A stretch of 57,352 nt of DNA from Parcubacteria group bacterium Gr01-1014_29 (GTDB lineage Bacteria; Patescibacteriota; Minisyncoccia; Ryanbacterales; 2-02-FULL-48-12), in the NCBI GenBank assembly GCA_007376195.1, contig VMFT01000003.1:1-57352 (forward strand), written 5' to 3'. The position numbers and the translations under genes were made by a program. The notes under the pieces were generated by a model. It was not told where the DNA came from, searched no databases, and saw only the letters and a list, made by a program, of their open reading frames with translations. This document shows positions 1 to 47,480 of the stretch, piece after piece (position 1 is the stretch's first letter; every line of letters starts with the position of its first letter).

Positions 1-221
1 TTTCTTCAACAATATTGAACCAAAAGAAAATCCCACTGGGTGTGGGATTGTTGGGCGTGGGTACGTTTATCCACAGTTGTGGAGTTTCGTAATTCACAGT
101 AACTTTCTCATTTGAACTCATAAATCCCCCCTTTGTTATTTGATAGATTTATACCATACTATCAATAAAAAAGCAAGGCCCGCTAAATAACGAGCAAACA
201 CATATGCGTCGCGTTCCAATA

Positions 222-3396: not shown

Positions 3397-4191
3397 ATGG
3401 GTAAACATCTCGGTCAACATTTTCTTACTTCTCCGGTAATTGCGCGGCGGATTGTTGATGTTGCCAACATCCTGCCGAATGATATTGTTTTGGAGGTAGG
3501 CCCGGGGAAGGGGATGCTGACACAGTTTTTGGTTGAGAAGGCAAAATTAGTGATTGCTGTAGAGAAAGACAAGCAACTTGTTCAGTATCTCCGAGAAAAA
3601 TTTAAAGATACGAAAAATCTTAAAATCGTATATGGTGATATCCTTAAAATCCCCCTTAATCCCCCTTTTTCAAAGGGGGAACTCCTCCCTTTGAAAAAGG
3701 GAGGTTGGGAGGGATTTTTTGATTCAAATTTCAAGATTGTTGCCAACTTACCATACTACATTACTTCGCATTTCTTACGGTTATTTCTGGAAACAAATGA
3801 GCTTCGCCCGCAATCCATGACGCTGATGGTTCAAAAAGAGGTTGCAGAGCGAATATGCGCAAAACCGCCGCATATGAACATGCTTGCACTCTCGGTGCAA
3901 ACATTTGGAGTGCCGAAAATCATCTTCAAGGTATCAAAAAACAACTTCGCGCCGCCGCCAGAAGTAGATTCAGCAGTTATTGCGATAGAAAACATATCAG
4001 ACGTCTTTTTTAAAAAGCACAACATTTCGCCGCAACAATTCTTCAAGCTCCCTAAAAAAGCCTTTTCCCAAAAGCGTAAAATGCTCCGCTCCTCTCTCAA
4101 ACTGACTAGACACCGAGTGTCTAGTCAGTTTGAGATGATACGGCCGCAGGAGTTGTCGTTGGAGGATTGGGCTTTTTTATGTCCGGATTAA
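3397..4191 (+). CDS. rsmA: 16S rRNA (adenine1518/1519-N6)-dimethyltransferase RsmA/KsgA, carrying an in-frame repeat insertion and a rebuilt 3' end
   Basis: GQHFL start motif, SAM site VLEVGPGKGMLT, VANLPYYITS motif. Residues IPLNPPFSKGELLPLKKGGWEGFF are encoded by palindromic repeat family A. The last 30 codons contain palindrome D and a duplicated C-terminal segment. Confidence 0.9.
   Translation: MGKHLGQHFLTSPVIARRIVDVANILPNDIVLEVGPGKGMLTQFLVEKAKLVIAVEKDKQLVQYLREKFKDTKNLKIVYGDILKIPLNPPFSKGELLPLKKGGWEGFFDSNFKIVANLPYYITSHFLRLFLETNELRPQSMTLMVQKEVAERICAKPPHMNMLALSVQTFGVPKIIFKVSKNNFAPPPEVDSAVIAIENISDVFFKKHNISPQQFFKLPKKAFSQKRKMLRSSLKLTRHRVSSQFEMIRPQELSLEDWAFLCPD
3646..3718. repeat. Palindromic repeat family A, copy 1 (inside rsmA, translated in frame)
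   Basis: AAAATCCCCCTTAATCCCCCTTTTTCAAAGGGGGA..TCCCTTTGAAAAAGGGAGGTTGGGAGGGATTTT. The imperfect inverted arms are related to copies at 11899, 15934 and 33585. Confidence 0.85.
4098..4132. repeat. Palindrome family D copy 1 (16 bp stem, CGA loop), inside the rsmA 3' coding region
   Basis: CAAACTGACTAGACAC-CGA-GTGTCTAGTCAGTTTG. Near-identical copies lie at 5027-5059 and 28339-28373. Confidence 0.9.
4141..4174 (+). repeat. Direct repeat (left copy) flanking the toxin-antitoxin-like cassette; encodes the RsmA C-terminus RPQELSLEDWAF
   Basis: CGGCCGCAGGAGTTGTCGTTGGAGGATTGGGCTT versus 4976-5009 CGGCCGCAGGAGCTGGCGCTGGAGGATTGGGCTT (31/34 by eye). Confidence 0.85.
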
Positions 4192-5026: not shown

Positions 5027-5059
5027 CAACTGACTAGACACCGAGTGTCTAGTCAGTTG
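5027..5059. repeat. Palindrome family D copy 2
   Basis: CAACTGACTAGACAC-CGA-GTGTCTAGTCAGTTG. Confidence 0.9.
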
Positions 5060-5145: not shown

Positions 5146-6819
5146 ATGTTGTGTTATACAAGACTGGGAGTTTTTTTTCTTTTTCACTACCTGTACAATA
5201 CCTATGTGCTTTTTATATTTATATTTGTATCTGGTTTTTTCGCATACTTAGCGTATCCGCCAGCAAAACTTTCTGTTGCCGCTTTTTTCTTTCTCATTCC
5301 TTTGTTTTTATTCCTTCGATGCAAACTTGGAAAGAGAGAAACGTTCCTTGGAGGATTTGCGGCTGGAACGTTCTTTAGCGGTTTTGCTCTCCGCTGGCTA
5401 TTCTTTATGATTCCTGTTGACTGGCTTGGCCTTCCAGAAAGCATGACTGTTGTATGGCTCATGTTCTTTTGGGGAAGTATTGTGTGTATAATTGGCTGCT
5501 TCTGGGGACTATTTGCCATCTTCGCTCAAAAACACATCCAAAACATTCATTGGCATTCCTTTATCATAATTCCGTCGCTCTGGGTTCTTGCAGAATATCT
5601 TTGGACGCTAACCATAACTCTTTTTTGGAACGGTGGTGGTAGTATTCTTGGCGTTCATTGGCAGTACGGCGCAGTTGCAGATATGCTCGCCGCAATTCCA
5701 ATAATACTCCCTATTACGCGCCTTGGTGGACCATTTTTTGGGAGCTTTTTTGTCGTTTTTATAAACCTTACCCTCTTTCTTGCGCTGTGCACAATTCCAT
5801 CAATTTCACCGAACACCTCAAAAAAAACAGTTCGTCTTCTTGCTATAGCGCTTATTGCTATCATAACACTGTTGATTAGCGCTTACGCGCCATTTGTTTT
5901 TCAAAAAGAGTCGTCTACTCCGCTTCGTGTAGCGCTTGTACAAACATCTATACCGCCGTCACCATTTGGGAAAACACTCATGGACTCTACCACTTGGGAA
6001 CACTATCACACCGCAATACGAAACGCGGCCGCCGACAAGCCAGATGTTATTGTGCTTCCCGAAACAAGAGGCTTTTTTCACAAAGAGCCATTGGTGGCGC
6101 CATCTATTGCCAGCTCTCTTGGCGCACTTGCAGAGCATTCGCTGCTTATTATAGATTCGGGATTTGCTTCTGTTAACGGAGCTGCGCGCTTACAAACCTT
6201 TTATGTAGATGCCCGCGAAGGACCCGTAGCTGTATATTATAAAAACCTTCTGGTCCCCATCGGAGAACATCTGCCTACCATTATAAAACTGGTTGCCGCA
6301 ATCTTTCCTGAATCAACTGCTCCGCTCAACATGCTAGATACTGCTACGGGGAGAGAGCCGGCAAAACCCGCGCCTCACAGTGTTTCATGGAATGGCGTTT
6401 CATTTGGCACATTGGCCTGTTCCGGCATTTTTTCATCCATACTCTACCGAAATCTTGTCCGTGAGGGCGCGAACATCCTTATCAACAGCGCAAGTCATGC
6501 TGTATTTAGACAAAACAAACAATTATCAGCCCAAATAGAAGCAAAAGGCGCCGTGCAAGCGGCATCTCTCATGCGTCCGTTTCTGCAAACAGCAAACGGG
6601 GGGGCCTTATTTGTTATTGCAAAAGATGGCAGAAAAATAGTGTACAAAGAACCGATATCATCCGGATCTTTTTCTTACACTAGTATCGAAATCTCGCCCT
6701 CGTATATATCCACGCCTTTTAAGTGGTTTGGTAATTGGATTGTGTGGGCGAGCGCACTCATATATGGCGGTTATTTGTTATCCACACAAAAGCAACTCAT
6801 GAGAACGCGGGAATCATGA
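5146..6819 (+). CDS. lnt: Apolipoprotein N-acyltransferase-like protein (polytopic N-terminus + CN-hydrolase domain)
   Basis: About 7 N-terminal TM helices are followed by a nitrilase-superfamily domain. Its elements are VALVQTSIPP, DVIVLPET (Glu), YYKNLLVPIGEHLP (Lys, Lnt-like Y.K..LVPFGE) and FGTLACSGIF (Cys). Exact start uncertain. Confidence 0.7.
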   Translation: MLCYTRLGVFFLFHYLYNTYVLFIFIFVSGFFAYLAYPPAKLSVAAFFFLIPLFLFLRCKLGKRETFLGGFAAGTFFSGFALRWLFFMIPVDWLGLPESMTVVWLMFFWGSIVCIIGCFWGLFAIFAQKHIQNIHWHSFIIIPSLWVLAEYLWTLTITLFWNGGGSILGVHWQYGAVADMLAAIPIILPITRLGGPFFGSFFVVFINLTLFLALCTIPSISPNTSKKTVRLLAIALIAIITLLISAYAPFVFQKESSTPLRVALVQTSIPPSPFGKTLMDSTTWEHYHTAIRNAAADKPDVIVLPETRGFFHKEPLVAPSIASSLGALAEHSLLIIDSGFASVNGAARLQTFYVDAREGPVAVYYKNLLVPIGEHLPTIIKLVAAIFPESTAPLNMLDTATGREPAKPAPHSVSWNGVSFGTLACSGIFSSILYRNLVREGANILINSASHAVFRQNKQLSAQIEAKGAVQAASLMRPFLQTANGGALFVIAKDGRKIVYKEPISSGSFSYTSIEISPSYISTPFKWFGNWIVWASALIYGGYLLSTQKQLMRTRES

Positions 6820-6857
6820 TATAGTAAAGGCATTGTTAAGCAAGTAGCAGTACTGTT

Positions 6858-7832
6858 TTGCGGTACCTTCCCAGTAAAAAATTTTTAAGCGGTTTTTTGG
6901 CGATAGTAACAATCGCTAGTTTGTGGTTTTTGTATTCCCGCGGAATTAATGAAAATACGTCTCCCGCGCTTTCGCGTACTCCTGAAGAGGATGCCCGTCG
7001 CAAACAACTCGAAAGCATTACCAAGGACTCTGATAATGACGGCTTGCGGGACTGGGAAGAGGTGTTATGGAAAACCGACCCCGCAAACCCTGACACAGAC
7101 GCAGACGGGACAAAAGACGGCGATGAAACACTGATAAATCGCGACCCATTGCTTGCAGGACCTACTGATGTGTTACAACCCGCCCCCACCGCAACATCCT
7201 CTCCCGAAACCGCAACGACCAAGTTTTTTGACTCTATTACGCGAGAACTGGCAGAACGCTATGTCACGGGAACACTTTCCTCTGATACGAGTGATGTTCA
7301 AGAGTCGGCTGCGGCATATATTGCCACGGCGACTCTTGGGGAAGTTGACCTCTATACTATTGAAGATCTGCGCATTATGCAAAACCCGACGGATAAAGAA
7401 ATTAAGCAATATGTTTTGGACGCAAGCGATGCCATAAAAGAGGTCTTTGCCGCCACATTTCAAAATCAAGTTCTCGTTCTTGCTTTTGTGGACGAGGATG
7501 CAAAAAAACGGGATGAAACGCTGTGGCCTATTATTTATGCCTACGACGACGCTGAAAACGCATTGAAAGAAAAAAATGTACCACAACAATATGCCGCAGA
7601 CCATCTTTTGCTGATGAACGCCGTAAAGAAAGGAAAAGAATCTATTATTGCAATGCGGAGAATTGACATTGACCCCGTCCTTGCACTTGTTGGCATGAAT
7701 CAGTTTGCCGTAGCTACACGACAACTAGTAACCGCCATTCAAAACACCCAAACAACGCTTTCACGAAATGGTATAGCGTTCTCTGGTGACGAGCTTGCAA
7801 CGCTTATGAATAATGTGCGAATCAATCAGTAA
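6858..7832 (+). CDS. Membrane-anchored hypothetical protein with acidic Ca-binding-like DxDxDG motifs (first gene of T4SS-like locus)
   Basis: N-terminal TM FLSGFLAIVTIASLWFLY; DSDNDGLRDWEE and NPDTDADGTKDGDE resemble thrombospondin type 3-like repeats. Confidence 0.55.
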   Translation: MRYLPSKKFLSGFLAIVTIASLWFLYSRGINENTSPALSRTPEEDARRKQLESITKDSDNDGLRDWEEVLWKTDPANPDTDADGTKDGDETLINRDPLLAGPTDVLQPAPTATSSPETATTKFFDSITRELAERYVTGTLSSDTSDVQESAAAYIATATLGEVDLYTIEDLRIMQNPTDKEIKQYVLDASDAIKEVFAATFQNQVLVLAFVDEDAKKRDETLWPIIYAYDDAENALKEKNVPQQYAADHLLLMNAVKKGKESIIAMRRIDIDPVLALVGMNQFAVATRQLVTAIQNTQTTLSRNGIAFSGDELATLMNNVRINQ

Positions 7833-9151
7833 TGACTGCCTTTCACAAAAAAATAGCGGCTGTAGTTCTCATGTTCTTCATACTATGCGCATCGTCATAT
7901 GCGCCGTGGAGCGTTCCGCGCGCACAGGCACTCGCATCTGGATCGATTGTGATAGATATAGAACAATATATAAAGGAATACATTCTTGATATTTTGGCAA
8001 AAGCTTTTCTTAAAAGACTCGCGCGGCAAATGGTTAATGAAACAAAAGAATGGCTTCGATCGGGGGACGCGTTCCGCGGCGGGGAACCCCTTTTTATAAC
8101 AAACTTCAATCAATACCTCTTTGACGCCGCTGATGTCGCGGCAAACGACTTCCTTGCCGAATTGTTTGGGGCAAAAACGTGGAACGCGCTCTGCAGACCA
8201 TTTCGCCTGCCGGTAGGCTTGGGCTTAAGCCAGAGCTACGGGCGTGGCTTCGGGAGTTTTAGGTATAAAGCGCGCTGCAGTATAACGGATATCGTGGGCA
8301 ACTTGGAGAATTTTTACTACAATTTCCAAAATGGCGGCTGGCAAGCTTGGGTTGCCAGCAGCCGGTACGAAAACAACATCTTTGGCCTGCTTACGATTAC
8401 GCGGGAGGAATCGCGTGAGCGGGAGCGTCTTGCCGCAAGAGAAAATAGGTATGATTTCGAGACGGGTTCCGGCTTTATCGCAAGTCAAATTTGCGTAGAC
8501 AGCATAACTATTGAAATAGAAAGCGACGTGACAAACAAGGTTGAATCAACCAAAAAAATCTGCAACAGAACCCTTAAAGAAACAATCGGATCTGTGGTGA
8601 AATCAAACCTAGATAGCGAGTTTGCGCGGGATTGGCTGGGACTTGAAATCGCAGATGAATTTCAGGAAATTATTTTTGCGGCGATAGACGGTCTACTCTC
8701 CATGGCAATTCAAGGACCCGGCGGGTTGTACAGAAAGCGTCCTCATTTTAACGCGACCGAGAGCAGACCCGTATACAAACCGTTCAGCAAAAACCCTACT
8801 TCATGGCGTTGTGCGGTTGACCACGGCGGGGGGGGAGCGAGCGCAAGTGGCGGCGGAACTAACCCGGATGGAAGCACCACGGGCGGATCTGCAAGCGTTA
8901 ATATCAGAATCGTCGGTTTCGACGATTGTAAAGCCGGGCCAAGCGGTCCTTTGCCCTACGACATACCACCCGACCCATCTATTGATTCTCCCGGTGGATC
9001 ATTTACCCAATGCAACGACGGCATAGACAACGACGGCGATAGTCTCATTGATCTTGCCGATTCGGATTGCACAAATGCTTCGGATCCAACCGAGGGTGAC
9101 GAACCCCCACCCCCACCCCCACCTACCCCACCTACGCCGCCTGGTCCATAA
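7832..9151 (+). CDS. Secreted hypothetical protein, Cys/Asp-rich C-terminal module and poly-Pro tail
   Basis: Signal-like N-terminus; CNDGIDNDGDSLIDLADSDC followed by EPPPPPPPTPPTPPGP. The start overlaps the stop of the preceding gene (ATGA). Confidence 0.55.
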   Translation: MTAFHKKIAAVVLMFFILCASSYAPWSVPRAQALASGSIVIDIEQYIKEYILDILAKAFLKRLARQMVNETKEWLRSGDAFRGGEPLFITNFNQYLFDAADVAANDFLAELFGAKTWNALCRPFRLPVGLGLSQSYGRGFGSFRYKARCSITDIVGNLENFYYNFQNGGWQAWVASSRYENNIFGLLTITREESRERERLAARENRYDFETGSGFIASQICVDSITIEIESDVTNKVESTKKICNRTLKETIGSVVKSNLDSEFARDWLGLEIADEFQEIIFAAIDGLLSMAIQGPGGLYRKRPHFNATESRPVYKPFSKNPTSWRCAVDHGGGGASASGGGTNPDGSTTGGSASVNIRIVGFDDCKAGPSGPLPYDIPPDPSIDSPGGSFTQCNDGIDNDGDSLIDLADSDCTNASDPTEGDEPPPPPPPTPPTPPGP

Positions 9152-9163
9152 AAACAAACGAGA

Positions 9164-11413
9164 ATGCATAAACTTCTTATTTTAATCAGACAACATTTCC
9201 GAAACCCACTGCTTTTTCTGGCAGTGTTGGCTGTTGTGTTTGTTGCGGCGTTTTCTCCGATCTTTTCACAAAATGTTGACGCGCAGCCACCCCCAACACC
9301 GTCACCAAACACGACGTTTGCCTGCAACACTGCTACTGGATGTAGTACGAATAGGTTTGATACAAGCACCTGTGACAATCAGTGTTTATCAGATGAAACA
9401 TGTATACCATCAAACCAGTGTACAAGTGTCACCAATCCAACAAAGGAAGCGCTTGATGCTGCTGCGAGCGGTGTTGTAACCTGGGCAGTCGAAAAAGTCC
9501 TTGAAGGTATTGTCGAAATCCTGAAATTCATTAACTCCATGCTCGTTAAGCTTGTGGGTGTGTTTGCGCAATTGCTTGACGCGGCAATTGCTCTTTCACT
9601 AGCGGGTTTGGGCGGCATAGAGGCAATAACCATCGGCTGGACTATCACGCGCGATATTGCCAACATCTTCTTTATATTTATTCTTCTTATCATTGCCATC
9701 GCGACCATTTTGCGGCTTGAGCAATACGGCGCAAAACAGCTTTTGCCAAAACTTATCATTATTGCGCTCCTCATTAACTTCAGCTTAGTTATTGCCTTTG
9801 CTGTTGTGGATGCATCTAACGTTTTGGCGCTTGCGTTCATTGGAGAAATTTCTCCTGTGTCAGACAAAATAGCGACAGTTCTTCAAATCAGTAAAATAAA
9901 CACCAAAACTGAACCGCAAGCAGAACACACTGAAATAGACTGGCAATCTGTTACGTCAACAGGTTGGCCCGCAGGAATGGGAATCATCAACCAACCATTT
10001 ACCCTTGATGCTACAATCATAGCGAACGCACCTGTTCAAAACGTATTTAGCGAACAATCCACAGAATTCTTTTGGCAAGCGACAATTCTTATTCTGCTAC
10101 TCACACTTATATTCGTATTTATATCGCTTAGTGTGATGCTGTTAATTCGCAGTGTCGCCTTGATTATTATTTTTGTGCTCGCACCTCTTGGGTTTCTTGC
10201 CGCTATTTTGCCACAAACCCGCGGATATAGCACTCAATGGTGGCAAAAATTGTTTCATTGGGCGTTTTTCTTCCCGGCATCGGCTTTTATGATATACCTT
10301 GCCTTGCAATATGGCGCGCAGATGACACAAATATTCGGTAGCGGGACAGGAAGCCACGTTATAAACACGGGGGTATTATTCAATTACTTTGTCGTTGTGG
10401 CACTCCTCATCGGCTCGCTCATTGTGGCACGCCAAATGGGCATTGCGGGGGCGGCGGCGGCCATAGGCATCGGCGCGGGGCTTGCCCGCAGAGCACGAGG
10501 GTATGCGGGCAAAATGGGCCGCGGGGCCGCGTATTACGGGTATCGCGGGGTAACAGCCCTTCCACGAGCAGGCGCACGAGCGGCCGGCAGGGGAATTGGC
10601 GATTGGGCTGGACGGAAACTTGAAGGTACGGCAGGGACAATACCGATTCTTCGCGGGGGACTTTTGCGTATATCTGAAGCCCGTGAGAAAGCTCTGGCTG
10701 AGGAAATGAAGCGTATGGGCAATCTTTCGGCGCCAGCGCTTGCCAATTTCCAAGGGGGCCTTACGGGAATGAGCTATGAAGCAGGCATACGGACATTTGC
10801 CAAGTTGAGACCCGAAGATCAGCGCCGGTATGCGGACACTATGGGCAAAGACAAGTTTAACAAGTTCGCCGAGGTGGTAGGGCAGCAGCTTGGTGAGCCG
10901 GGCAAGAAACTCGCCGCCAAGGCAACGGGGGACGTGCACGAGGCAATGCGCATTTTGCACCGCAAGCAGTTTGGGGATATGGCGCATGAGCCTGCCGAGG
11001 GCGAGGCCGGGTATGACGCATACCAGCAACAGGCGCATGATTACCTTTCCGGTCTTACAACCAAGGAAATCGGCATGTTGAGTGTCAATACCGTACGGAC
11101 CAGTGATGCGCTCCGCGAATATATATTCAGAAATTCTGAAAACATGAAAGAAATGCTCACCAAACGAGAACACGTTCAAGCGTTTAGTGAGAACATTAAT
11201 GACCATTTGAACAAAAATATAACCCTCATGACTTTAGCCGGTGTCTCACGTAATGATCAAATTGCAAACGAAATAAAAGCAAAAGGCGGCCCCATTACGC
11301 TTGAGACTGCGTTCCGAAGCGGTATCGGGGTTAATGTAGTATTAAACCCAAGCAAAGTTCCCATCGGCACAAAACGCGGTATTGTAACAACCGTAACCGC
11401 GGAAGGAGAATAG
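9164..11413 (+). CDS. VirB6/TrbL-like polytopic membrane protein of T4SS-like locus
   Basis: Signal peptide, Cys-rich extracellular N-domain, then at least 6 hydrophobic helices and an Arg/Gly/Ala-rich cytoplasmic tail. This architecture and its position beside a VirB4 gene are typical of VirB6/TrbL/PrgH analogues. No sequence search was possible. Confidence 0.55.
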   Translation: MHKLLILIRQHFRNPLLFLAVLAVVFVAAFSPIFSQNVDAQPPPTPSPNTTFACNTATGCSTNRFDTSTCDNQCLSDETCIPSNQCTSVTNPTKEALDAAASGVVTWAVEKVLEGIVEILKFINSMLVKLVGVFAQLLDAAIALSLAGLGGIEAITIGWTITRDIANIFFIFILLIIAIATILRLEQYGAKQLLPKLIIIALLINFSLVIAFAVVDASNVLALAFIGEISPVSDKIATVLQISKINTKTEPQAEHTEIDWQSVTSTGWPAGMGIINQPFTLDATIIANAPVQNVFSEQSTEFFWQATILILLLTLIFVFISLSVMLLIRSVALIIIFVLAPLGFLAAILPQTRGYSTQWWQKLFHWAFFFPASAFMIYLALQYGAQMTQIFGSGTGSHVINTGVLFNYFVVVALLIGSLIVARQMGIAGAAAAIGIGAGLARRARGYAGKMGRGAAYYGYRGVTALPRAGARAAGRGIGDWAGRKLEGTAGTIPILRGGLLRISEAREKALAEEMKRMGNLSAPALANFQGGLTGMSYEAGIRTFAKLRPEDQRRYADTMGKDKFNKFAEVVGQQLGEPGKKLAAKATGDVHEAMRILHRKQFGDMAHEPAEGEAGYDAYQQQAHDYLSGLTTKEIGMLSVNTVRTSDALREYIFRNSENMKEMLTKREHVQAFSENINDHLNKNITLMTLAGVSRNDQIANEIKAKGGPITLETAFRSGIGVNVVLNPSKVPIGTKRGIVTTVTAEGE

Positions 11414-11417
11414 ATAT

Positions 11418-11508
11418 GACGCACCTTTCAAGAAAAATATTCTCCGATGGCCTTGAAATAACAGAAAATTGTCGGCCATATAGAACATTTTTTCCTGAAA
11501 GGTGCGTC
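11418..11508. repeat. 91 nt hairpin repeat family B, copy 1
   Basis: It is the reverse complement of 43318-43408 with 6 mismatches by eye, 4 of which are compensatory pairs in the terminal stem. Confidence 0.85.
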
Positions 11509-11538
11509 AAAGGAGTATGTAACTTAAATAACTAACCC

Positions 11539-12645
11539 ATGGACGACACAACAAACAAACAACCAAATGAGATATTCGACCGCCTTGAAAAACTCCCTCC
11601 GGAGTTAAAGGACGTTATGTTTTCAACCGTTACGGCCGAAAAGATGTTTGATATCGGCAAGCGGCACGGCCTTCTGGTGGACAAACTGGGCGACATGGCG
11701 CACGAAACCGGGCTTTTGATGCTTGGCGTAACACACCCTGATGAATTTATCGGCAACCTTGCTTCCCGACTTGAAGTAAACACACAAAAAGCAAACGCGA
11801 TAGCCGACGACATAAACCGCGAAATCTTTGCTCCCGTACGCGAACAGTTACGCGCAGTGTTTGGGGGAACTGCTGGTCAGGGAGAAACACCAACTAATAA
11901 AATCCCTCCCGGCCTCCCTTTTCCAAAGGGAGGAGAGAAATCAATTCCCCTTGAGAAATTAACTCCCCCTTTGGAAAAGGGGGTTATGGGGGATTTGCAA
12001 GGTACTAGCACCAAACCTGAAACAACTTTAGAAGACCTTGAGGCCGAGCTGGAGCACGCTCTTGCCGGACAAGGAGGTGGACAACCATTGAGTGTGGTTA
12101 AAAAACCAGCCAATCTAGGTTACAAAGGCGCTGATCCCTATCGCGAACAAGTTGAGGAGCATATGCCAAATGTACGAGGCGCACCCTATGTGCCGAGCAA
12201 AGAACAAGTAGTAAGTAGTACGTATCAAGGGAAAGAAGAGCCCAAGCCGATCAAAGAAATATCAATAGCAACACCGACACCAAAGTCGGTCGAGGAGCCG
12301 TCCGTGTTTTCGCCTCTATCGCCAAAACCCGCAGAGTCTGCAACAAAAGAACACGACACTCAAAAGGCATCAGGCTTCAAATTTCAAAATTCAACCTCCA
12401 GCAAAAACGATGAAGATGTATTAAAAGAAATCACAGGTGACACAAAAAACGGGTCGCTCCAAGCATTTCGCGGATTTAATATGAATAATAACCGATCGGT
12501 TGAGAACCCGCCGCGCTATGGATTTTCGAAACTGCCTCCGTACAGGGAAAATCCTACTGCAAAACCAACACCGGCAGAGCCAGTGGGAATGCCACAACCC
12601 ATTACTAAAAACCAGAACGATTCATACAGGGAAAAAATTGAGTAG
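11539..12645 (+). CDS. Hypothetical low-complexity protein (T4SS-like locus) containing a translated family A repeat
   Basis: ORF of 368 aa. Residues KIPPGLPFPKGGEKSIPLEKLTPPLEKGVMGDL are encoded by repeat copy 11899-11996. The C-terminal half is Pro/Lys/Ser rich. Confidence 0.5.
   Translation: MDDTTNKQPNEIFDRLEKLPPELKDVMFSTVTAEKMFDIGKRHGLLVDKLGDMAHETGLLMLGVTHPDEFIGNLASRLEVNTQKANAIADDINREIFAPVREQLRAVFGGTAGQGETPTNKIPPGLPFPKGGEKSIPLEKLTPPLEKGVMGDLQGTSTKPETTLEDLEAELEHALAGQGGGQPLSVVKKPANLGYKGADPYREQVEEHMPNVRGAPYVPSKEQVVSSTYQGKEEPKPIKEISIATPTPKSVEEPSVFSPLSPKPAESATKEHDTQKASGFKFQNSTSSKNDEDVLKEITGDTKNGSLQAFRGFNMNNNRSVENPPRYGFSKLPPYRENPTAKPTPAEPVGMPQPITKNQNDSYREKIE
11899..11996. repeat. Palindromic repeat family A, copy 2 (long variant, translated in frame)
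   Basis: AAAATCCCTCCCGGCCTCCCTTTTCCAAAGGGAGGA..(28 nt)..CTCCCCCTTTGGAAAAGGGGGTTATGGGGGATTT. Confidence 0.85.
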
Positions 12646-13331: not shown

Positions 13332-14009
13332 ATGGCAAAACCACTTCCCGCACAACAACTTGTTGAAGTTCAGGAAATACGCGACGGTGTGTTGCTATTG
13401 AAAGATGGGTCGCTTCGCGTTGTTTTGATTGCATCGTCCATCAACTTCGCGCTGAAATCGCAAGAAGAACAAGACGCTATAATTTTTCAATACCAAAACT
13501 ACCTTAATTCGCTTGATTTTTCCGTTGAGGCATTTGTGCAATCGCGCCATCTTAACATCGAGCCGTACCTTGAGGTGTTGCGGGAACGCCTCGGACGCGA
13601 ATTTAACGAGCTTATGAAAATACAGATTACCGAATACATAGACTTCGTAAAATCATTTGTGGAAAGCTCTCATATTATGGCGAAGGGCTTTTATGTGGTA
13701 GTGCCATTTACACCCCTGCGTCTGCCCCGGCAGGCAAGCATTCAAAGATCGGTCCTTAAGTTCCTGCCCGACTTGTCCGGCCGCACAAAAAAACAGGCAA
13801 AAGAAATGCGTGAACATGGTGTTACCCAGGAACGGTTTGAAGAATACAAAACCCAGTTATTTCAGCGCGTGGAAGTAACGCGCCAAGGCCTCGGACGCCT
13901 CGGGGTGCGCATTGTGCCGCTTAACACCGAAGAGCTGATAGAACTCTTTTACAGTTTGTACAATCCGGGGGAAATTGAAAAAGGGAAGATACCGGAAGTG
14001 GCAACATAA
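13332..14009 (+). CDS. VirB4/TrsE-type N-terminal domain protein (separate ORF)
   Basis: LVEVQEIRDGVLLLKDGSLRVVLIASSINFALKSQEEQDAIIFQYQNYLNSLDF resembles the N-terminal region of Gram-positive VirB4-like ATPases. It is in the same reading frame as the next ORF, 90 nt away. Confidence 0.6.
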   Translation: MAKPLPAQQLVEVQEIRDGVLLLKDGSLRVVLIASSINFALKSQEEQDAIIFQYQNYLNSLDFSVEAFVQSRHLNIEPYLEVLRERLGREFNELMKIQITEYIDFVKSFVESSHIMAKGFYVVVPFTPLRLPRQASIQRSVLKFLPDLSGRTKKQAKEMREHGVTQERFEEYKTQLFQRVEVTRQGLGRLGVRIVPLNTEELIELFYSLYNPGEIEKGKIPEVAT

Positions 14010-14016
14010 TAGCAAA

Positions 14017-14098
14017 TTAGGCTTTAGGCTCTAGGCTCTAGGTATTAGGAAATACACTTGAGACCTGAAGCCTAGCGCCTAAAAACTAGCGCCTAGCA
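14017..14098. repeat. Heptad-periodic inverted array (TTAGGCT x5 / CCTAGCG-type x5) filling the gap between the two VirB4 ORFs
   Basis: TTAGGCT TTAGGCT CTAGGCT CTAGGTA TTAGGAA - 12 nt - CCTGAAG CCTAGCG CCTAAAA ACTAGCG CCTAGCA, then CA ATG. Confidence 0.85.
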
Positions 14099-14099
14099 C

Positions 14100-15911
14100 A
14101 TGGCTTTCTTATCAAAACTATTTGGTAAAAAACAAGAAGATGGAGAAGGTATCCTTCCGATTTTTCCGCAAGATATTTACTCACACGGCGTTTTAGAACT
14201 GGAAGATGCCATCGCGCCCGCAGCGCTCCAGGTAAACCCATCAAACCTGCGCCTCGGAGAAAAATACACTCGTACACTGTATGTATACGCCTATCCGCGG
14301 TTTTTGGCGACAAGCTGGTTTGCGCCTATCATCAATCTCGATAAAGTGTTTGATATCTCAATTTATATTCATCCGGTTGACACAGCCCTAATTCTGCGCG
14401 ATCTTCGCAAGAAAGTTGCCGAGGTACAATCGCAGATTTCCATACGTGAAGAAAAAGGCCTCGTGCGCGATCCAGTGCTTGATACTGCTTACCAGGATCT
14501 TGAGGCTCTGCGCGACAAACTCCAACAGGCGCAGGAAAAACTCTTTAGCATTGGGCTGTACATCACGCTCTACGGAGACACAGAAAAAGAGCTTACAGAA
14601 ATCGAGACAGAAGTACGTTCTATTCTTGAAGCAAAACTAATCTACGCGAAGCCCGCGCTCTTCCAGCAGCGGGAAGGATTTACCAGCACCCTGCCGCTTC
14701 TGCTTGATAAGCTGGAAGTGCATACCTACATGAACTCGTCCCCGCTTTCAAGTGTGTTTCCGTTTGTATCATTTGACCTCACCTCAAACCGCGGCATACT
14801 CTATGGCATTAATCGCCACAACAACAGCCTTATTTTATTCGACCGCTTTACGCTCGAAAACTACAACACGGTTGTTTTCGCAAAAGCGGGCGCGGGCAAG
14901 TCGTATATGACAAAACTCGAAATCCTGCGTTCGCTTATGTTTGATACTGATGTAATTGTAATAGATCCGGAACGGGAATATGAGTATCTGGCCGAAACCG
15001 TTGGCGGCAGATTCTTTAATATTTCCATCAACTCACACCATCATTTAAATCCCTTTGATCTTCCTTTGCCGCACGAGGATGAGTCGCCCACGGACGTGCT
15101 GCGCTCAAATATCATCAATCTTATTGGCCTCTTCCGGTTGATACTCGGCGGACTCACGCCCGAAGAAGATTCCATCATGGACCGTGCCATTACCGAAGCG
15201 TACGCCGCAAAAGACATTACAGCAGAGGCAGATTTTACGCATATCTCCCCCCCCCTGCTTTCAGACCTGGAGCTGGTGCTCGCGAACATGCAGGGTGGCG
15301 AGACACTGGCATTGCGCCTTAGAAAATACACCGAAGGCACGTGGTCGGGGTTTCTGAACCAACCGACAAATATAAACATCGACAAGCACATGGTGGTATT
15401 CTCGCTGCGCGATATGGAAGAGGAACTTCGTCCCATTGGCATGTATATTGTTACGCATTATATCTGGAATGTTGTGCGGTCTGAACTCAAAAAGCGCATC
15501 CTTATAGTTGATGAGGCCTGGTGGCTGATGAAATCGGAAGATGGCGCATCGTTTCTTTTTGGTCTTACCAAACGCGCCCGCAAATATTTCTTAGGTGTTA
15601 CCACTATTACGCAAGATATCGGCGACTTTATGAACTCGCCCTACGGCAAGCCGATTATCACCAACTCGTCTATTCAGGTACTGTTGAAGCAATCTCCCGC
15701 CACAATTGATATAATGAAAGATGTGTTTAACCTCACCGACGAAGAAAAGTTTCTGCTTTTGGAGTCCGACGTGGGGGAGGGAATTTTCTTCGCGGGGTTG
15801 AAACACGTGGCCATAAAAGTTATCGCCTCCTACACCGAAGACCAGATTATTACATCCGACCCCGAGCAATTATTGGCGATTAAACGGGCGAAAGAAGAAT
15901 TTACACAGTAA
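14100..15911 (+). CDS. virB4: VirB4/TraC-type T4SS ATPase (CagE_TrbE_VirB-like domain + AAA_10-type ATPase)
   Basis: Walker A FAKAGAGKSYMTK, Walker B ILIVDEAWWLM, and YTRTLYVYAYPRFL plus DISIYIHPVD motifs typical of VirB4 middle domains. Confidence 0.85.
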   Translation: MAFLSKLFGKKQEDGEGILPIFPQDIYSHGVLELEDAIAPAALQVNPSNLRLGEKYTRTLYVYAYPRFLATSWFAPIINLDKVFDISIYIHPVDTALILRDLRKKVAEVQSQISIREEKGLVRDPVLDTAYQDLEALRDKLQQAQEKLFSIGLYITLYGDTEKELTEIETEVRSILEAKLIYAKPALFQQREGFTSTLPLLLDKLEVHTYMNSSPLSSVFPFVSFDLTSNRGILYGINRHNNSLILFDRFTLENYNTVVFAKAGAGKSYMTKLEILRSLMFDTDVIVIDPEREYEYLAETVGGRFFNISINSHHHLNPFDLPLPHEDESPTDVLRSNIINLIGLFRLILGGLTPEEDSIMDRAITEAYAAKDITAEADFTHISPPLLSDLELVLANMQGGETLALRLRKYTEGTWSGFLNQPTNINIDKHMVVFSLRDMEEELRPIGMYIVTHYIWNVVRSELKKRILIVDEAWWLMKSEDGASFLFGLTKRARKYFLGVTTITQDIGDFMNSPYGKPIITNSSIQVLLKQSPATIDIMKDVFNLTDEEKFLLLESDVGEGIFFAGLKHVAIKVIASYTEDQIITSDPEQLLAIKRAKEEFTQ

Positions 15912-16029
15912 TACTTTGAATTACGAAACTCCTAAAAATCCCCCTTCATCCCCCTTTTCCAAAGGGGGACATGCGCTCCTCCCTTTGGAAAAGGGAGGTT
16001 GGGAGGGATTTTGTAATTCAAAGAGTAAT
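15908..16029. mobile_element. MITE-like composite: 21 nt terminal inverted repeats enclosing a family A palindrome (copy 3, 15934-16012)
   Basis: Left TIR is GTAATACTTTGAATTACGAAA; its TAA is the virB4 stop. Right TIR is TTTTGTAATTCAAAGAGTAAT, ending 4 nt before the next ATG. The same TIR type bounds 43287-43452. Confidence 0.7.
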
Positions 16030-16033
16030 AAGT

Positions 16034-16564
16034 ATGCCTGAAGAAACAACCGAACAACAATACCAAGCCGAACTGTTGCGCGAGCGACAGCGTGAGCAGC
16101 AGATGAATATTGAAGAGGCGGAACGCGAAATGGAGCTTGCGGAAACGGAGGATCTTTCCCAAACCCAAGCCGCTGGACAAGCAAAAGCGCCTAGGAACAC
16201 ATTTCCTCTATCAGCCATTGCGGTAGGTCTTTGGTTGTTTCCCGCCGCAGCTTTGGATATGTTTGAGTTTTTTGGGCAGGTATTGGCCGCGATTCCGTTT
16301 ATCGGGTTGCCGCTCGCTGGGGCAAGCAGTATTGTTGGGGCAATTTTTAGTGGTATAATGGTTTTGATAGTCGGGTTCTGGCTTCTTATGAAAGGTGTAA
16401 CTCCTTTCTCACCGAGCGGCATCCGGATATTTCTTGTTTTGGGGGCAACCGCGTTTGGCAATGCCATTGTAAACTGGCTGCCGGCGTGGAGTGGATTCTT
16501 TTTGTGGCTTTTCTTTATGGCCCACGCGCGAGAAGCGCTTTTCTTAAATAAATTTAAAAAATGA
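16034..16564 (+). CDS. Hypothetical 4-TM membrane protein (T4SS-like locus)
   Basis: Acidic N-terminus followed by four hydrophobic helices. The start is moved to the ATG at 16034 because the upstream part of the ORF is repeat-derived. Confidence 0.55.
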   Translation: MPEETTEQQYQAELLRERQREQQMNIEEAEREMELAETEDLSQTQAAGQAKAPRNTFPLSAIAVGLWLFPAAALDMFEFFGQVLAAIPFIGLPLAGASSIVGAIFSGIMVLIVGFWLLMKGVTPFSPSGIRIFLVLGATAFGNAIVNWLPAWSGFFLWLFFMAHAREALFLNKFKK

Positions 16565-19323: not shown

Positions 19324-19417
19324 GCATTAGGCGCTAGGCTGTAGGCACTAGGAGTTAGAATTTAGAGAAAGAAAATTTTTTCTAAAGCCTAATGCCTAGT
19401 TTTCCTAGAGCCTAAAC
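19321..19417. repeat. Heptad-periodic inverted array (TAGGCNN x7 / CCTANNN x4) between convergent genes
   Basis: TAGGCAT TAGGCGC TAGGCTG TAGGCAC TAGGAGT TAGAATT TAGAGAA ... CCTAATG CCTAGTT .. CCTAGAG CCTAAAC. The first TAG is the stop of 18127..19323, and a CTA in the last units is the stop of jag. Confidence 0.85.
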
Positions 19418-28338: not shown

Positions 28339-28373
28339 CCAACTGACTAGACACTCGGTGTCTAGTCACTTGG
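28339..28373. repeat. Palindrome family D copy 3, immediately downstream of ruvC
   Basis: CCAACTGACTAGACAC-TCG-GTGTCTAGTCACTTGG. The loop is inverted relative to copies 1 and 2, so orientation relative to the upstream gene is the same. Confidence 0.9.
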
Positions 28374-31861: not shown

Positions 31862-33532
31862 TTATTCTCCCGTAACCCGCTCAACTTCTTCCCACGAGGT
31901 GATACCTGCGATGGTTTTTAATGCGCCGTCTTGATGCATGGTGAGCATCCCTTGTTTTTTTGCCGCTTCGCGCACTGCCGCCTCGGACGGCCGTTCTAAA
32001 ATCATGCCTTCAATCGCATCATCAATACGAAATACCTCAAATATGCCGACGCGCCCTTTGTAGCCGGTGTGATTGCATGCGTCACAACCAGTCGCGCGCC
32101 ATATTGTTGTTTTGGCAAGGGATGGTTTTATGTACGGCGCCGGTAAATCTTTCATGGTATCTTCAATGCGTTTTAATTCTTTGCCGGCAAGCGGATATTG
32201 TGCGCGGCATGTTGCGCATAGTTTGCGTACCAGACGCTGTGCCATGGCGGTATTGATTGCGGGGGCGATGATGTTGGGTTGTACCCCAAGGTCAATAAGG
32301 CGCGGGATAGTGCCGGGTGCGTTGTTGGTGTGGAGCGTAGAAAATACCAAATGCCCCGTAAGTGATGCGTGCATAGCGATTTCCGCCGTTTCTTTGTCGC
32401 GGATTTCTCCCACCAAAATTACATCGGGGTCTTGGCGCAAGATGGAACGAAGGCCGTTGGAGAAATCATATCCTTTGTCGTGGTCTACCTGTGTCTGGTT
32501 TATGCCTAAAAGATGATACTCAATCGGGTCTTCAATGGTTATGATATTGATGTCCGGAGAGTTGATGCGTTTGACAAACGCGTAGAGTGTTGTGGTTTTT
32601 CCTGATCCGGTGGGGCCGGTGGTGAGCAGCATGCCGTTGGGTTTTTTGAGCTCGTTCACCAAAAGATCAAACACCGGCTGCTGCATGCCGAGGTTTTCCA
32701 TTGAGAGCGCTATCATTTTCGGTGAAAGAATACGCATCACAATCGATTCCCCTTGCGGTCCGGGAAGGGTGGAGGTGCGTACCTCAATATCTTCCGTATT
32801 TGTGCGGATGGTAAAGCGGCCGTCCTGCGCCCGCTCGCGAATGTTTAGTTTGATGCCGGAGATCAGTTTTATGCGCGAAAGAAGCAGAGTATAAACTTGC
32901 GGAGAGAAAAACATAACGTCGTGCAACACACCGTCGAGTCGCAGACGCAGGCGGGTTTTTTTCTCTTCTGCTTCAATGTGGATGTCTGATGCATCCAAAG
33001 TGAGCGCGCCGCTCAGCGCAACTTCCAGCGTAAGTGATATTTGCCGTTCTTCCCCGCTTGCTATAAGAGGTTCCAAGGCATCACATAGTTGGTCGGTAGT
33101 GCGGATAACGGAGCTGGCAGAGACAACAGCTTTTGTTACAAGGGAAACAATGCCCTTAAGGACAGGTTTTGAATATGTTGCTTCTTTGTATTTATCCCAC
33201 GCTTTCTCAAGACTGTGGCGTGACACCATAAACACCTGCGGTTCGTACTGTTTATGTTTAAGATCTTCAAGAATGCCTTGGGCCTGCATTGAATTCGGGT
33301 TGCGGATGGCCACTTTTATTTTTTTACCCGCCGTCTGGATAACGGCAAGCTCGGCTTCGCGCGCTTGTGTTTCCAGAACGATAAGAACTGATGTGGTATC
33401 AATGCTTATCGTATCTAGGTTAAGATAGGGAAGGTTGTATTTTTTTGAAAGTACGCGCGCGAGCTCTTCTTCTTCTTCCAAATGTAATGTTTGAAGTTTC
33501 TCGTTTACTTTGTTTTCGTCGAATCGGACCAT
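31862..33532 (-). CDS. pilB: GspE/PilB family type II/IV secretion ATPase
   Basis: N-terminal T2SSE_N-like region, Walker A GPTGSGKTTTLYA, Asp box DPIEY, Walker B VILVGEIRD, and a tetracysteine motif (CATC...CDACNHTGYKGR). Confidence 0.88.
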   Translation of the reverse strand: MVRFDENKVNEKLQTLHLEEEEELARVLSKKYNLPYLNLDTISIDTTSVLIVLETQAREAELAVIQTAGKKIKVAIRNPNSMQAQGILEDLKHKQYEPQVFMVSRHSLEKAWDKYKEATYSKPVLKGIVSLVTKAVVSASSVIRTTDQLCDALEPLIASGEERQISLTLEVALSGALTLDASDIHIEAEEKKTRLRLRLDGVLHDVMFFSPQVYTLLLSRIKLISGIKLNIRERAQDGRFTIRTNTEDIEVRTSTLPGPQGESIVMRILSPKMIALSMENLGMQQPVFDLLVNELKKPNGMLLTTGPTGSGKTTTLYAFVKRINSPDINIITIEDPIEYHLLGINQTQVDHDKGYDFSNGLRSILRQDPDVILVGEIRDKETAEIAMHASLTGHLVFSTLHTNNAPGTIPRLIDLGVQPNIIAPAINTAMAQRLVRKLCATCRAQYPLAGKELKRIEDTMKDLPAPYIKPSLAKTTIWRATGCDACNHTGYKGRVGIFEVFRIDDAIEGMILERPSEAAVREAAKKQGMLTMHQDGALKTIAGITSWEEVERVTGE

Positions 33533-33570: not shown

Positions 33571-33697
33571 TACTTTGAATTACGAAATCCCTCCCCCGCC
33601 CGCCTTGCTTCGCAACGCGAAGCGGGCAGGCAACCTCCCTTTTCCAAAGGGGGATGAAGGGGGATTTTTAGTGTCAGACATTCTCGTAAATCTTAAA
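33571..33697. repeat. TIR-like module + family A palindrome copy 4 (33585-33669) with a central GC hairpin
   Basis: TACTTTGAATTACGAAA, then AAATCCCTCCCCCGCCCGCC..GCTTCGC-AAC-GCGAAGC..CCTCCCTTTTCCAAAGGGGGATGAAGGGGGATTTTT. It is flanked by TCTGACA / TGTCAGA. A degenerate right end overlaps the stop of 33693..34571. Confidence 0.7.
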
Positions 33698-42366: not shown

Positions 42367-43290
42367 ATGATCTATCTTCTCTACGGCGAAGATTCCTACC
42401 GTAGCCGCAAAAAGGTCCGGGAGATAACGGATCATTTTTATCGTGTCTCGGGCGGTGCTGAGGGCGCGTATCGTGTTGCTCTTTCGGAGTGTCTGCTCAA
42501 AGACGTTGAGGCAACCGCCGGCACTGCTTCGTTGTTTCGGACAAAACGTTTTGTGTTGTTTGAAGAACCAAGCGCGGCATCCGCCGACATCGCGCAGTTT
42601 CTGGAAAAAAAACTCCCGTCGTATGCCACGTCAGATGATGTGTTTGTGTTTTGGGACCGCTCACCGGGGAAAGGCGCTGGAGAAGCGTTGTTGCGAAAAA
42701 TCGCGGATCATGCGGCAAAAACGCAGGAGTTTGGCCGCATGGCGCCGCGCGCCGTTGTAAAATTTTTTGATGAAGAAGCGCTTGCACGCGGTGTTGCGCT
42801 CTTGCCGCGCGAAAAACAAGAACTCATTGCCGAGGCCGCCGGAGATTCATGGCGGCTTGTACAGCTTATAGAAAAATACGCGTTAGGGATGAACAGGGAG
42901 CGACCGCGACATGAAGAGCTTCAGAATCGCACAGTCTTTTCCTTTACGGACGCGTGCGGACTCGGCAAGCGTCAGGAAGCATGGCTGCTGCTGCAGCGCA
43001 TGTTGCGGCATGGTTTTACGGCAGAGCGCTTGTTTTGGGCGCTTCTTGGACATATCCGCACACTTATCCGTGTGGGGTCTCTTGTCGAGAGCGGGGTTAG
43101 CGCCGCGGATGTGCCGCGCGCGGCCGGCGTGCATCCGTTTGTCGCCAAGAAAGCCATGACACAGGCCGCGCGGTTTTCGATACCGGAGCTTTCCCGTCTG
43201 TTTGGCACATTATCCCAGCTTGATTATGAAACAAAACAAAGCCGAGGGGACGTGACCCTCGGCTTGGAACGGATAGTATTATCTTTGTAA
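42367..43290 (+). CDS. holA: DNA polymerase III delta subunit
   Basis: MIYLLYGEDSYRSRKKV N-terminus and a length of about 307 aa typical of HolA. Sequence conservation is otherwise weak. Confidence 0.7.
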   Translation: MIYLLYGEDSYRSRKKVREITDHFYRVSGGAEGAYRVALSECLLKDVEATAGTASLFRTKRFVLFEEPSAASADIAQFLEKKLPSYATSDDVFVFWDRSPGKGAGEALLRKIADHAAKTQEFGRMAPRAVVKFFDEEALARGVALLPREKQELIAEAAGDSWRLVQLIEKYALGMNRERPRHEELQNRTVFSFTDACGLGKRQEAWLLLQRMLRHGFTAERLFWALLGHIRTLIRVGSLVESGVSAADVPRAAGVHPFVAKKAMTQAARFSIPELSRLFGTLSQLDYETKQSRGDVTLGLERIVLSL

Positions 43291-43452
43291 TTACTTTGAG
43301 TTACGAAATAATCCTTTTACGTACCTTTCAGGAAAAAATGTTCTATATGGCCGACAATTTTCTGCTATTTCAAGGCCATCGGAGAACATTTTTCTTGAAA
43401 GGTACGTAGGCATGCTTATAATACTACTTGTTTCGTAATTCACGGTAATTAC
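43287..43452. mobile_element. MITE-like composite: 22 nt TIRs enclosing hairpin family B copy 2 (43318-43408)
   Basis: Left TIR is GTAATTACTTTGAGTTACGAAA and right TIR is TTTCGTAATTCACGGTAATTAC. The TAA inside each outer GTAATTAC is the stop codon of holA (plus) and rpsT (minus) respectively. Confidence 0.75.
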
Positions 43453-43712
43453 TCTTTTGCAACGAGAAGTTTTGTAAGCCGCGACTTCTTGCGGGAAGCC
43501 GTATTTTTCTTTATTACACCGGTTTTCACTGCTTTATCAAGTTTCTGGTAGACACGGGGAAGCAGTGCTTTTGCTTCCGCGGATTTTCCGGCGGCTATAA
43601 GTTTACGCAAATCCTTTACGGCGTTACGTGCTTGCGTTATTTTTTTGACGTTCCGGACATGCCGCCGTTGGGATTGCCTGAAAGATTTTTTTGCTGATTG
43701 TGTGTTTGGCAT
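43449..43712 (-). CDS. rpsT: 30S ribosomal protein S20
   Basis: MPNTQSAKKSFRQSQRRHVRNVKK...; basic, helical, 87 aa. Confidence 0.92.
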   Translation of the reverse strand: MPNTQSAKKSFRQSQRRHVRNVKKITQARNAVKDLRKLIAAGKSAEAKALLPRVYQKLDKAVKTGVIKKNTASRKKSRLTKLLVAKE

Positions 43713-43783
43713 AACCATAATACACTAGCACATGTTTTTTTGAAGGGCAAGCGCATGAAAAACAATCAATCGACGCATAGCCC

Positions 43784-43874
43784 ATGATGAATTATGAATC
43801 AAGAATTATGAATTATGGGAAAAAAATACAAGGAAATTTCTTTGCATGATTCTTAATTCATACTTCATAATTCA
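43784..43874. repeat. Heptad-periodic inverted array (ATGAATT-type / TAATTCA-type) between uvrB and rpsT
   Basis: ATGAATT ATGAATC AAGAATT ATGAATT ATGGGAA ... TGATTCT TAATTCA TACTTCA TAATTCA. The last five codons and the stop of uvrB lie in the right arm. Confidence 0.8.
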
Positions 43875-46788: not shown

Positions 46789-46862
46789 AGCCGTAGAGTA
46801 ACATATAAATGTTAGAATAACAACCGACTGGCTTTTTTATTTTCTTGCTACCTATTATACTA

Positions 46863-46897
46863 CCTAATGCCTAGAGCCTAATATCTAGCGCCTAACA
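46863..46897. repeat. Heptad-periodic array CCTAATG CCTAGAG CCTAATA TCTAGCG CCTAACA ending 1 nt before the ruvA ATG
   Basis: Read directly. The unit type matches the right arms at 14064-14098 and 19388-19417. Confidence 0.8.
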
Positions 46898-46898
46898 A

Positions 46899-47480
46899 AT
46901 GATTTCCTTACTTGAAGGCACCATTGAGTTCAATGGCGAACGGTTCGCTGTTATTAACGCGGGCGGGGTTGGCTATAAAGTGTTTTTTGCTCCGGAGACC
47001 ATGCGCAGTGTAGCCAAGATCGGCGAGCGCCACAAGGTCTGGACGCATCTTCACGTGCGCGAAAACGACATGGAGCTCTATGGATTTTTATCATACGCCG
47101 AGATGCAGTTTTTTGAAGTGCTCATAGGTGTCTCTGGTGTCGGTCCCAAATCGGCTCTTGGAATTTTGGGTGTTGCCCCGCTCGATATGTTAAAACGCGC
47201 TATAGCCGCGGGCGAGATGAACTATCTGACAAAAGTTTCAGGCATTGGGAAACGTATGGCGGAAAAAATTATTGTGGAACTCCGCGACAAACTTGGGGGC
47301 GCGCAAATGTCCGAAGGCGTTCGCGCCGAACTTACTGCCGATACGGATGTGCTTGATGCGCTGATTTCCATGGGGTATTCACAGCGCGAGGCGCGTGAAG
47401 CCGTAAGCCGCGTGCCTGCCGGTATATCGGGAACAAAAGAGCGCCTTAGTGAGGCGCTGAAAGGGTTGGGGAAAAGATAA
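46899..47480 (+). CDS. ruvA: Holliday junction DNA helicase RuvA
   Basis: MISLLEGTI start, OB fold, HhH motifs (GVSGVGPKSALGIL; VSGIGKRMAEKII), and C-terminal domain III. Confidence 0.92.
   Translation: MISLLEGTIEFNGERFAVINAGGVGYKVFFAPETMRSVAKIGERHKVWTHLHVRENDMELYGFLSYAEMQFFEVLIGVSGVGPKSALGILGVAPLDMLKRAIAAGEMNYLTKVSGIGKRMAEKIIVELRDKLGGAQMSEGVRAELTADTDVLDALISMGYSQREAREAVSRVPAGISGTKERLSEALKGLGKR

Follow-up and report, generated by a model that had tools for sequence, protein, structure and literature searches.

Intergenic mosaics composed of a small number of palindromic module types, often situated at gene ends, are known as bacterial interspersed mosaic elements (BIMEs) and pneumococcal BOX elements, and a similar arrangement is found in the 57-kb stretch of DNA analysed here (hereafter the window), which belongs to a Parcubacteria/Paceibacteria-type bacterium of the candidate phyla radiation (CPR). 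Neither BIMEs nor BOX elements are known to have terminal inverted repeats (TIRs) that match those of a DDE transposon, or to be flanked by target-site duplications. A closer counterpart is the well-described IS982 family of insertion sequences (ISs), which, according to the review by Fayad, Kallassy Awad & Mahillon (2020; PMC7335449), consists of elements of ~1 kb with a single DDE open reading frame (ORF), 5'-AC ends and short direct repeats of variable length. A MITE (miniature inverted-repeat transposable element) derived from one member of this family, ISCca4, has been described in Cardinium, an endosymbiont of Oedothorax gibbosus (PMC9769881). Four features of the window (15913-16024, 43293-43446, a decayed copy at 33572-33672 and a truncated one at 1-100) are very probably MITEs that carry the TIRs of a ~1-kb IS982-family clade spread through the Patescibacteria. 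Like the Cardinium MITE, such elements are short and gene-less, have IS982-like inverted repeats, occur in many copies and are presumed to be mobilised in trans; the Cardinium MITE, however, is one lineage-specific family of ~240 bp that keeps parental IS sequence (PMC9769881), whereas the ends described here bear at least 35 unrelated cores phylum-wide, with hairpin repeats that have no relation to the interior of the IS. This MITE family is of a known kind, and its occurrence in this phylum was not found described: a literature search for IS982 elements or MITEs in Patescibacteria returned no paper, and the available text of the IS982 review names no Patescibacteria among the hosts (PMC7335449).

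The first of the two intact elements (MITE 1, 15913-16024) is 112 bp long, contains no ORF and separates virB4, encoding a VirB4-like ATPase (14100-15911, with its TAA stop at 15909-15911), from the next gene, which starts with an ATG at 16034. Its inverted arms, ACTTTGAATTACGAAA on the left (15913-15928) and TTTTGTAATTCAAAGA on the right (16009-16024), enclose a family A core, i.e. a double hairpin made up of A-left (~15933-15969) and A-right (~15976-16012), and the whole folds as a single long foldback (-34 kcal/mol, z -7.8). Directly outside the arms lies a duplicated GTAAT, the left copy of which (15908-15912) includes the virB4 stop codon, while the right copy (16025-16029) is located 4 nt ahead of the ATG. 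The second (MITE 2, 43293-43446) is 154 bp long, is likewise devoid of ORFs, and occupies the junction between holA (DNA polymerase III delta subunit, 42367-43290, TAA stop at 43288-43290) and the minus-strand gene rpsT (ribosomal protein S20, 43449-43718; Pfam PF01649, 6.6e-24). Between its arms, ACTTTGAGTTACGAAA (43293-43308) and TTTCGTAATTCACGGT (43431-43446), it holds a family B foldback of 100 nt (~43308-43407) that is unrelated to core A, followed by a subterminal stretch of 24 nt that leads up to the right arm; this element also folds end to end into a long foldback (z about -7.8). Here the duplication is AATT (4 bp; 43289-43292 on the left and 43447-43450 on the right), and positions 43449-43451, read as their complement, form the TAA of rpsT. 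All of the features that the first-pass annotation of this DNA had described, i.e. the arm pairs, the cores, a third copy, an arm-like half near 85-104 and the exact placement between stop and start codons, are present in the sequence. The pair of shared arms it reported likewise stands, but not the length of 21-22 nt, because the conserved arm measures 16-17 nt and the outer GTAAT or AATT is target-site duplication, lying outside the element.

The arm is enriched in the window: when at most 3 mismatches are allowed, the 17-mer TTTCGTAATTCAAAGT is found 6 times versus 0.33 expected, and none of 100 dinucleotide-preserving shuffles gave as many as 6. The tally of elements comes to two intact copies, one decayed and one cut. 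Among relatives the motif is patchy. It is absent from L001 and L002, the closest relatives (84-87% VirB4 identity) among the 80 VirB4 loci of public Patescibacteria genomes that were compared, and a Campbellbacteria contig (L050) holds 7 copies within 12 kb, where the core they enclose is yet another one, unrelated to A and B. At the scale of the phylum, a scan with the 19-mer pattern TTTCGTAATTCAWAGTAAT across 185,579 species genomes yielded at least 118 stretches, nearly all of them in Patescibacteria records, where ~9 would be expected by chance (our own estimate); the lineages among the matches listed include Paceibacteria and Uhr-, Kuenen-, Magasanik-, Falkow-, Moran-, Staskawicz- and Taylorbacteria. 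When the stretches are aligned by the orientation of the motif, copies from one genome share the same inner side, which varies between genomes, while the outer side is unique to each copy, which means that the motif delimits a repeat. Pairing of inverted copies among the matches listed gave ~86 short gene-less elements of 76-331 bp, which fall into at least 35 unrelated core clusters, as well as a few elements of ~1 kb. Many of the matches listed sit 120-140 nt from contig ends, as is expected of repeats that break assemblies. This documents, for CPR bacteria with their reduced genomes, an IS982/MITE system that looks active and has an end that is conserved phylum-wide; such IS982-type repeats break assemblies, and the conserved end supplies a convenient marker with which insertion polymorphism can be followed at strain level in groundwater communities. 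Besides these, minimal elements of 30-63 bp were observed that contain little beyond the two arms (L133:4161-4190, L163:2366-2414, L117:3231-3287 and L164:3988-4050).

With element boundaries set at ACTTTG...CAAAGT, a flanking direct repeat of at least 4 nt was found for 67 of 100 elements, compared to 17.5 (at most 26) when left and right flanks were paired at random. The duplications are 4-5 bp long and the favoured target reads A-A-T-T-(A/T)-A. Over half of them (39 of the 67, versus 3.6 in the controls) are not AATT but comprise 29 different sequences, such as AATAT, CAATA, ACTATA, AAGTT, TCTTA and ATCAG. Stops within the duplication are a general pattern across the genomes collected: of 172 element ends, 18 lie within 9 nt of a stop codon that closes an open frame of at least 80 codons, compared to 1.4% of random positions, and 13 of these 18 stops begin 5-6 nt outside the element, i.e. 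within the duplication. The duplications of 4-5 bp also argue against an IS630/mariner-type element, which would duplicate TA. The frequent location of an arm just before an ATG had raised the option of a promoter, a ribosome-binding site or a leaderless-start signal, which was rejected in view of the duplications and of an outside sequence that differs per copy.

Both intact elements have a counterpart in which they are missing. The exact empty sites at the two loci come from close relatives in other groundwater metagenomes, as Logan contigs of the runs X4 and X6; among the runs compared (X1 to X6), X1 is the best holder of the window and X4 belongs to a separate groundwater study. At the virB4 junction, an X4 contig of 2177 nt, with ~94% identity to the window, leads from 15911 directly into the next gene, reading ATAATAGAT and then ATGCCTGAA, i.e. 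TAA, 9 nt and ATG; the distance from the virB4 stop to the next ATG also amounts to only a few nt in L003, L005, L006, L009, L011 and L012, while L001 and L002 carry different, unrelated palindromic elements at this junction. At the holA/rpsT junction, contigs from X4 (2743 nt) and X6 omit exactly 158 nt (within 43287-43454) with zero letters in between, which equals the 154-bp element plus its 4-bp duplication. The empty site reads TCTTT-GTAATTAC-TCTTTT, in which GTAATTAC is an 8-bp palindrome whose two strands already carry the stop codons (TAA) of holA and rpsT, respectively. The AATT target is part of this palindrome, and after the insertion the stop of each gene is kept in one copy of the duplication. 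It had been proposed that the elements donate stop codons and replace gene ends, which is contradicted by these sites: since relatives without the elements already hold the same stops, the stop codons of virB4, holA and rpsT are host sequence and were not donated. Palindromes that fill the space from stop to start codon to the exact nucleotide are thereby explained by ordinary transposon biology, and annotators have no need of donated stops.

A palindromic element of another kind, with arms composed of GAATTATGAATTATGGGAAAA, is found in the window at 43788-43874, and a relative of it occupies the junction of virB4 and the next gene in the closest public genome (L002:2715-2880), from which it follows that the same junction has been colonised independently by different elements.

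The identity of the system follows from the ~1-kb elements that are bounded by the same arms. Two of these, L177:1346-2352 and L114:4210-5196, contain ORFs of 286 and 266 aa, respectively, the products of which are 53% identical to each other and contain the Pfam domain DDE_Tnp_1_3. The best NCBIfam match of the L177 protein is NF033520 (IS982 transposase), with 139.2 bits against a cut-off of 130 (E 1.7e-40). A search with both transposases gave 31 loci, 16 of which are armed at both ends, with an IS length of 979-1078 bp and target-site duplications of their own; 3 mismatches to TTTCGTAATTCAAAGT were allowed for their arms, whereas no more than 2 were observed. Another 11 of the 31 have an arm at one end only; several of these contigs stop short of the other end, and where the contig continues the other arm may have decayed. 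In size, single DDE ORF, 5'-AC ends and short direct repeats of variable length these presumed parents resemble the IS982 family as described. Of the end signature 5'-AC(N)6T(N)5TT given in the review (PMC7335449), the arm ACTTTGAATTACGAAA has the 5'-AC and the T at position 9, with AA in place of TT at positions 15-16; the clade also differs from that description in a 16-17-nt end that is almost invariant across many candidate phyla. As for the source of the enzyme, X1 contains several contigs of 0.5-1.0 kb in which stretches of ~50-125 nt match the L208 transposase gene at 80-88% identity; one of these contigs has a depth of 15.8, resembling that of the window genome. A partner transposase is certainly present in the community, and its presence in the window's own genome is plausible.

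Following these results, the proposal of the first-pass annotation that these are non-autonomous mobile elements, with one pair of ends around unrelated cores, holds: the motif is widespread, duplications and exact empty sites in relatives were both found, and a transposase with matching TIRs exists, in public Patescibacteria genomes, in the form of an IS982-family enzyme. Its further suggestion of interchangeable modules is correct in part: the ends carry many different cores, and TIR+A and TIR+B each behave as a transposing unit, of which further copies are present elsewhere in the source sample. Contigs of X1, X2 and X4 contain TIR+A and TIR+B copies with other flanks, and in the TIR+A copies of X1 and X2, made up of the arm and A-left, the similarity begins precisely at 15913/15914.

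In terms of mechanism, the footprints show insertion into short A/T-rich targets, most often AATT, with duplication of 4-5 bp, and a DDE transposase acting in trans would bind both arms and insert the intervening DNA. In these compact genomes, AATT-like targets cluster at TAA stops and in A/T-rich start regions, and insertions within genes are lost, so that the survivors are those that separate a stop from a start, or one stop from another that converges on it, with a host stop codon falling inside the duplicated target. The tight stop/start fit then results from the preference for A/T-rich, AATT-like targets together with selection against insertions in genes. The cores are passengers (core A units are very abundant without arms too, core B occurs mostly with arms, and smaller hairpins nest), and the modular look results from many passengers sharing one end pair, in addition to the nesting of smaller hairpins.

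Several observations weigh against the assignment to an IS982-driven MITE family or soften it. Transposition is deduced from its footprints and was not observed, and the empty sites stem from relatives that are 89-94% identical and not from the same strain; Logan contigs can demonstrate presence but not absence. Since AAT directly outside one of the arms was a requirement of the scan, AATT-type duplications are over-represented among the loci collected. The L114 protein also has NF033520 as its best family, but its 103.6 bits are under the cut-off of 130, and positions 15-16 of the arm ACTTTGAATTACGAAA are AA where the IS982 logo of the review (PMC7335449) has TT. Finally, tblastn detected no transposase in the 57-kb window itself.

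The alternative that survives best concerns the origin of the modularity rather than the ends: independently mobile hairpins (the A units, a GC hairpin and perhaps B) may have entered minimal arm-arm MITEs, with the IS982 arms acting as a generic vehicle, which is given a probability only a little below even. In favour of it, A-left and A-right each have their own sharp boundaries and diverse flanks in four metagenomes, at depths that are very large and differ greatly between the two (for example 6500-8000 versus 450 in X6, with flanks at 0-2); the two are repeats independent of each other and very abundant. A-type units are found between the same arms in L144 (in another order), L155 and L182, while armless A units reside inside two ORFs, and the minimal arm-arm elements of L133, L163, L117 and L164 are possible 'empty vehicles' for the nesting of other hairpins.

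The most direct observation on nesting comes from the decayed TIR+A copy (MITE 3, 33572-33672), which was delineated by alignment and internal repeat pairs and which has the opposite orientation. It retains a single arm (33572-33587), has lost the second, shows an internal deletion between the A hairpins, and contains a nested 36-nt GC hairpin, CCCGCCCGCCTTGCTTCGCAACGCGAAGCGGGCAGG, at 33595-33630. Another copy of the element in X1 skips precisely 33595-33630, and near-identical hairpins stand alone in contigs of X5 and X6. The hairpin looks like a tiny independently mobile repeat, and its lack in another copy, combined with its solitary occurrence elsewhere, directly supports the growth of composites through nesting. 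A clean empty site for MITE 3 was not obtained from the relative, in which the spacer consists of 95 nt of other sequence.

Against nesting as the general origin of the cores, no copy identical to MITE 1 minus A was found, so that an A insertion was not caught in the act; B is almost exclusively associated with arms (nearly all other B copies in X1 and X4 have an IS982-type arm 11-25 nt away), and no mechanism is known that moves A units. A further objection comes from work on triplex motifs, which core A resembles. By inspection, the halves of core A have a pyrimidine-purine-purine layout of three blocks, as in CCTCCCTTT-GG-AAAAGGGAGG-TT-GGGAGGG, where the published motif reads CCCTCNCCC-N3-6-GGGNGAGGG-N3-GGGNGAGGG (PMC4666352), the comparison being one of block layout alone. 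High abundance and a mostly intergenic location are shared as well with the triplex-motif repeats (BoxC/PIT/TM_ECO; PMC4666352). In E. coli, however, triplex motifs were reported to show no association with mobile elements (Holder et al. 2015, PMC4666352), whereas core A consists of two inverted units between transposon ends that move as a MITE. Triplex-motif units riding in a MITE are a small new observation on how such repeats can spread.

A broader reading would extend this to the whole phylum, such that one near-invariant IS982-type end pair is the shared vehicle for small structured repeats across the Patescibacteria (triplex-motif units, GC hairpins and long foldbacks) for which no other means of spreading is known, its AATT/TAA preference planting hairpins at operon junctions where some may have been co-opted to punctuate transcripts or are translated in frame, rsmA being an example of the latter. 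Such a reading is speculative and rather unlikely as it stands, but if true it would be the first link of triplex-motif repeats to a transposition machinery.

Markedly less probable still, indeed very improbable, is that the elements are host regulatory devices maintained by selection (bidirectional terminators, mRNA-stabilising stem-loops or operon punctuation), with the arm as a protein- or RNase-binding site. Both intact elements form long foldbacks (z about -7.8) placed exactly at gene boundaries, and the right arm of MITE 1 puts AAAGAG 8-13 nt upstream of the ATG, as such a role would have it. A regulatory device would, however, not account for duplications that vary in sequence, for exact empty sites in close relatives with the gene junctions intact, for a distribution that ranges from none in L001 and L002 to the 7 copies in L050, or for a transposase gene bounded by the same arms, and a simple scan of 15700-16200 gave no promoter-like site and no terminator-like site within the element. 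The MITE interpretation leaves room for a secondary use of the elements by the host. Recognition of hairpins by a system such as repetitive extragenic palindromic (REP) sequences/BIMEs with their REP-associated tyrosine transposase (RAYT; IS200/IS605-type), or by Xer modules with dif-like sites, has next to no probability, since, for all the mosaic, BIME-like palindromic make-up and the resemblance of GTAATT-N6-AATTAC (43436-43453) to a small dyad, this dyad varies among copies with the 16-17-nt arm alone conserved, duplications are present that neither REP/RAYT nor Xer systems produce, and the arms are true TIRs of a DDE (IS982) element. The individual candidates were rejected likewise: REP/BIME-RAYT repeats are imperfect palindromes of 20-40 nt without TIRs or target-site duplications that are linked to an IS200-like Y1 transposase, whereas TIRs, duplications and a DDE enzyme are found here; a dif-like dyad for Xer is not kept among copies; and IS200/IS605-type targeting of TTAC does not agree with a linked enzyme that is a DDE transposase.

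The remaining copies in the window are incomplete. At the very start (1-100, plus strand) lies a right end that is cut by the window start, with the arm TTTCGTAATTCACAGT at 85-100. The best matches of 67-101 are the right ends of transposase-carrying copies, and contigs of X2 and X3 (893 and 970 nt) end at this arm, with a depth above that of the window genome in the same runs; X1, too, contains a high-depth contig that ends there. Judged by these matches, 1-100 probably represents the terminus of a full-length IS982-type copy, and the complete insertion sequence would lie just left of the window.

A second family B copy, inverted and 94% identical to 43308-43407, is present at 11419-11518, with subterminal and inner-arm remnants on its ATG side. 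A close relative has TAG, 20 nt and ATG at this locus, so the B copy is an insertion. The adjoining GTAACTTAAATAACTAAC (11520-11537) was considered as a decayed outer arm, but the native spacer of the relative reads TTAATTAACAAATACAAC, which makes it mostly host sequence; the inner-arm and subterminal remnants alone stay credible.

Family A units without a full pair of arms occur in two genes. In rsmA (RsmA, 3397-4191), an armless A pair lies in frame at 3646-3718 (plus strand) and is adjoined by the right-arm vestige TTGATTCAAA at 3719-3728, because of which the pair may derive from an arm-bearing copy; a contig of a relative bridging the insert was sought among the metagenome contigs and not found. 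Two diverged A-type units, 28 nt apart and without arms, lie in frame at 11899-12002 (plus strand) within the ORF 11539-12645.

Other genes referred to in the window are a VirB6/TrbL-like ORF (9164-11413), a second VirB4-like ORF (13332-14009), PilB (31862-33532, minus strand) and UvrB (43858-45828, minus strand). A search of Rfam at gathering thresholds for a known RNA family that would fit the motif gave tRNA-Val only. Two more kinds of repeat were observed. Arrays of the heptamers TTAGGCT/CTAGGC form inverted arms at 14017-14111, 19327-19358 and 46858-46910, one of which takes up the 90 nt that separate the VirB4-like ORFs 13332-14009 and 14100-15911. In addition, a perfect palindrome of 31 nt, AACTGACTAGACACCGAGTGTCTAGTCAGTT, is present in three copies (4100-4130, 5028-5058 and 28341-28371), two of which flank a minus-strand insert of two genes that follows rsmA.

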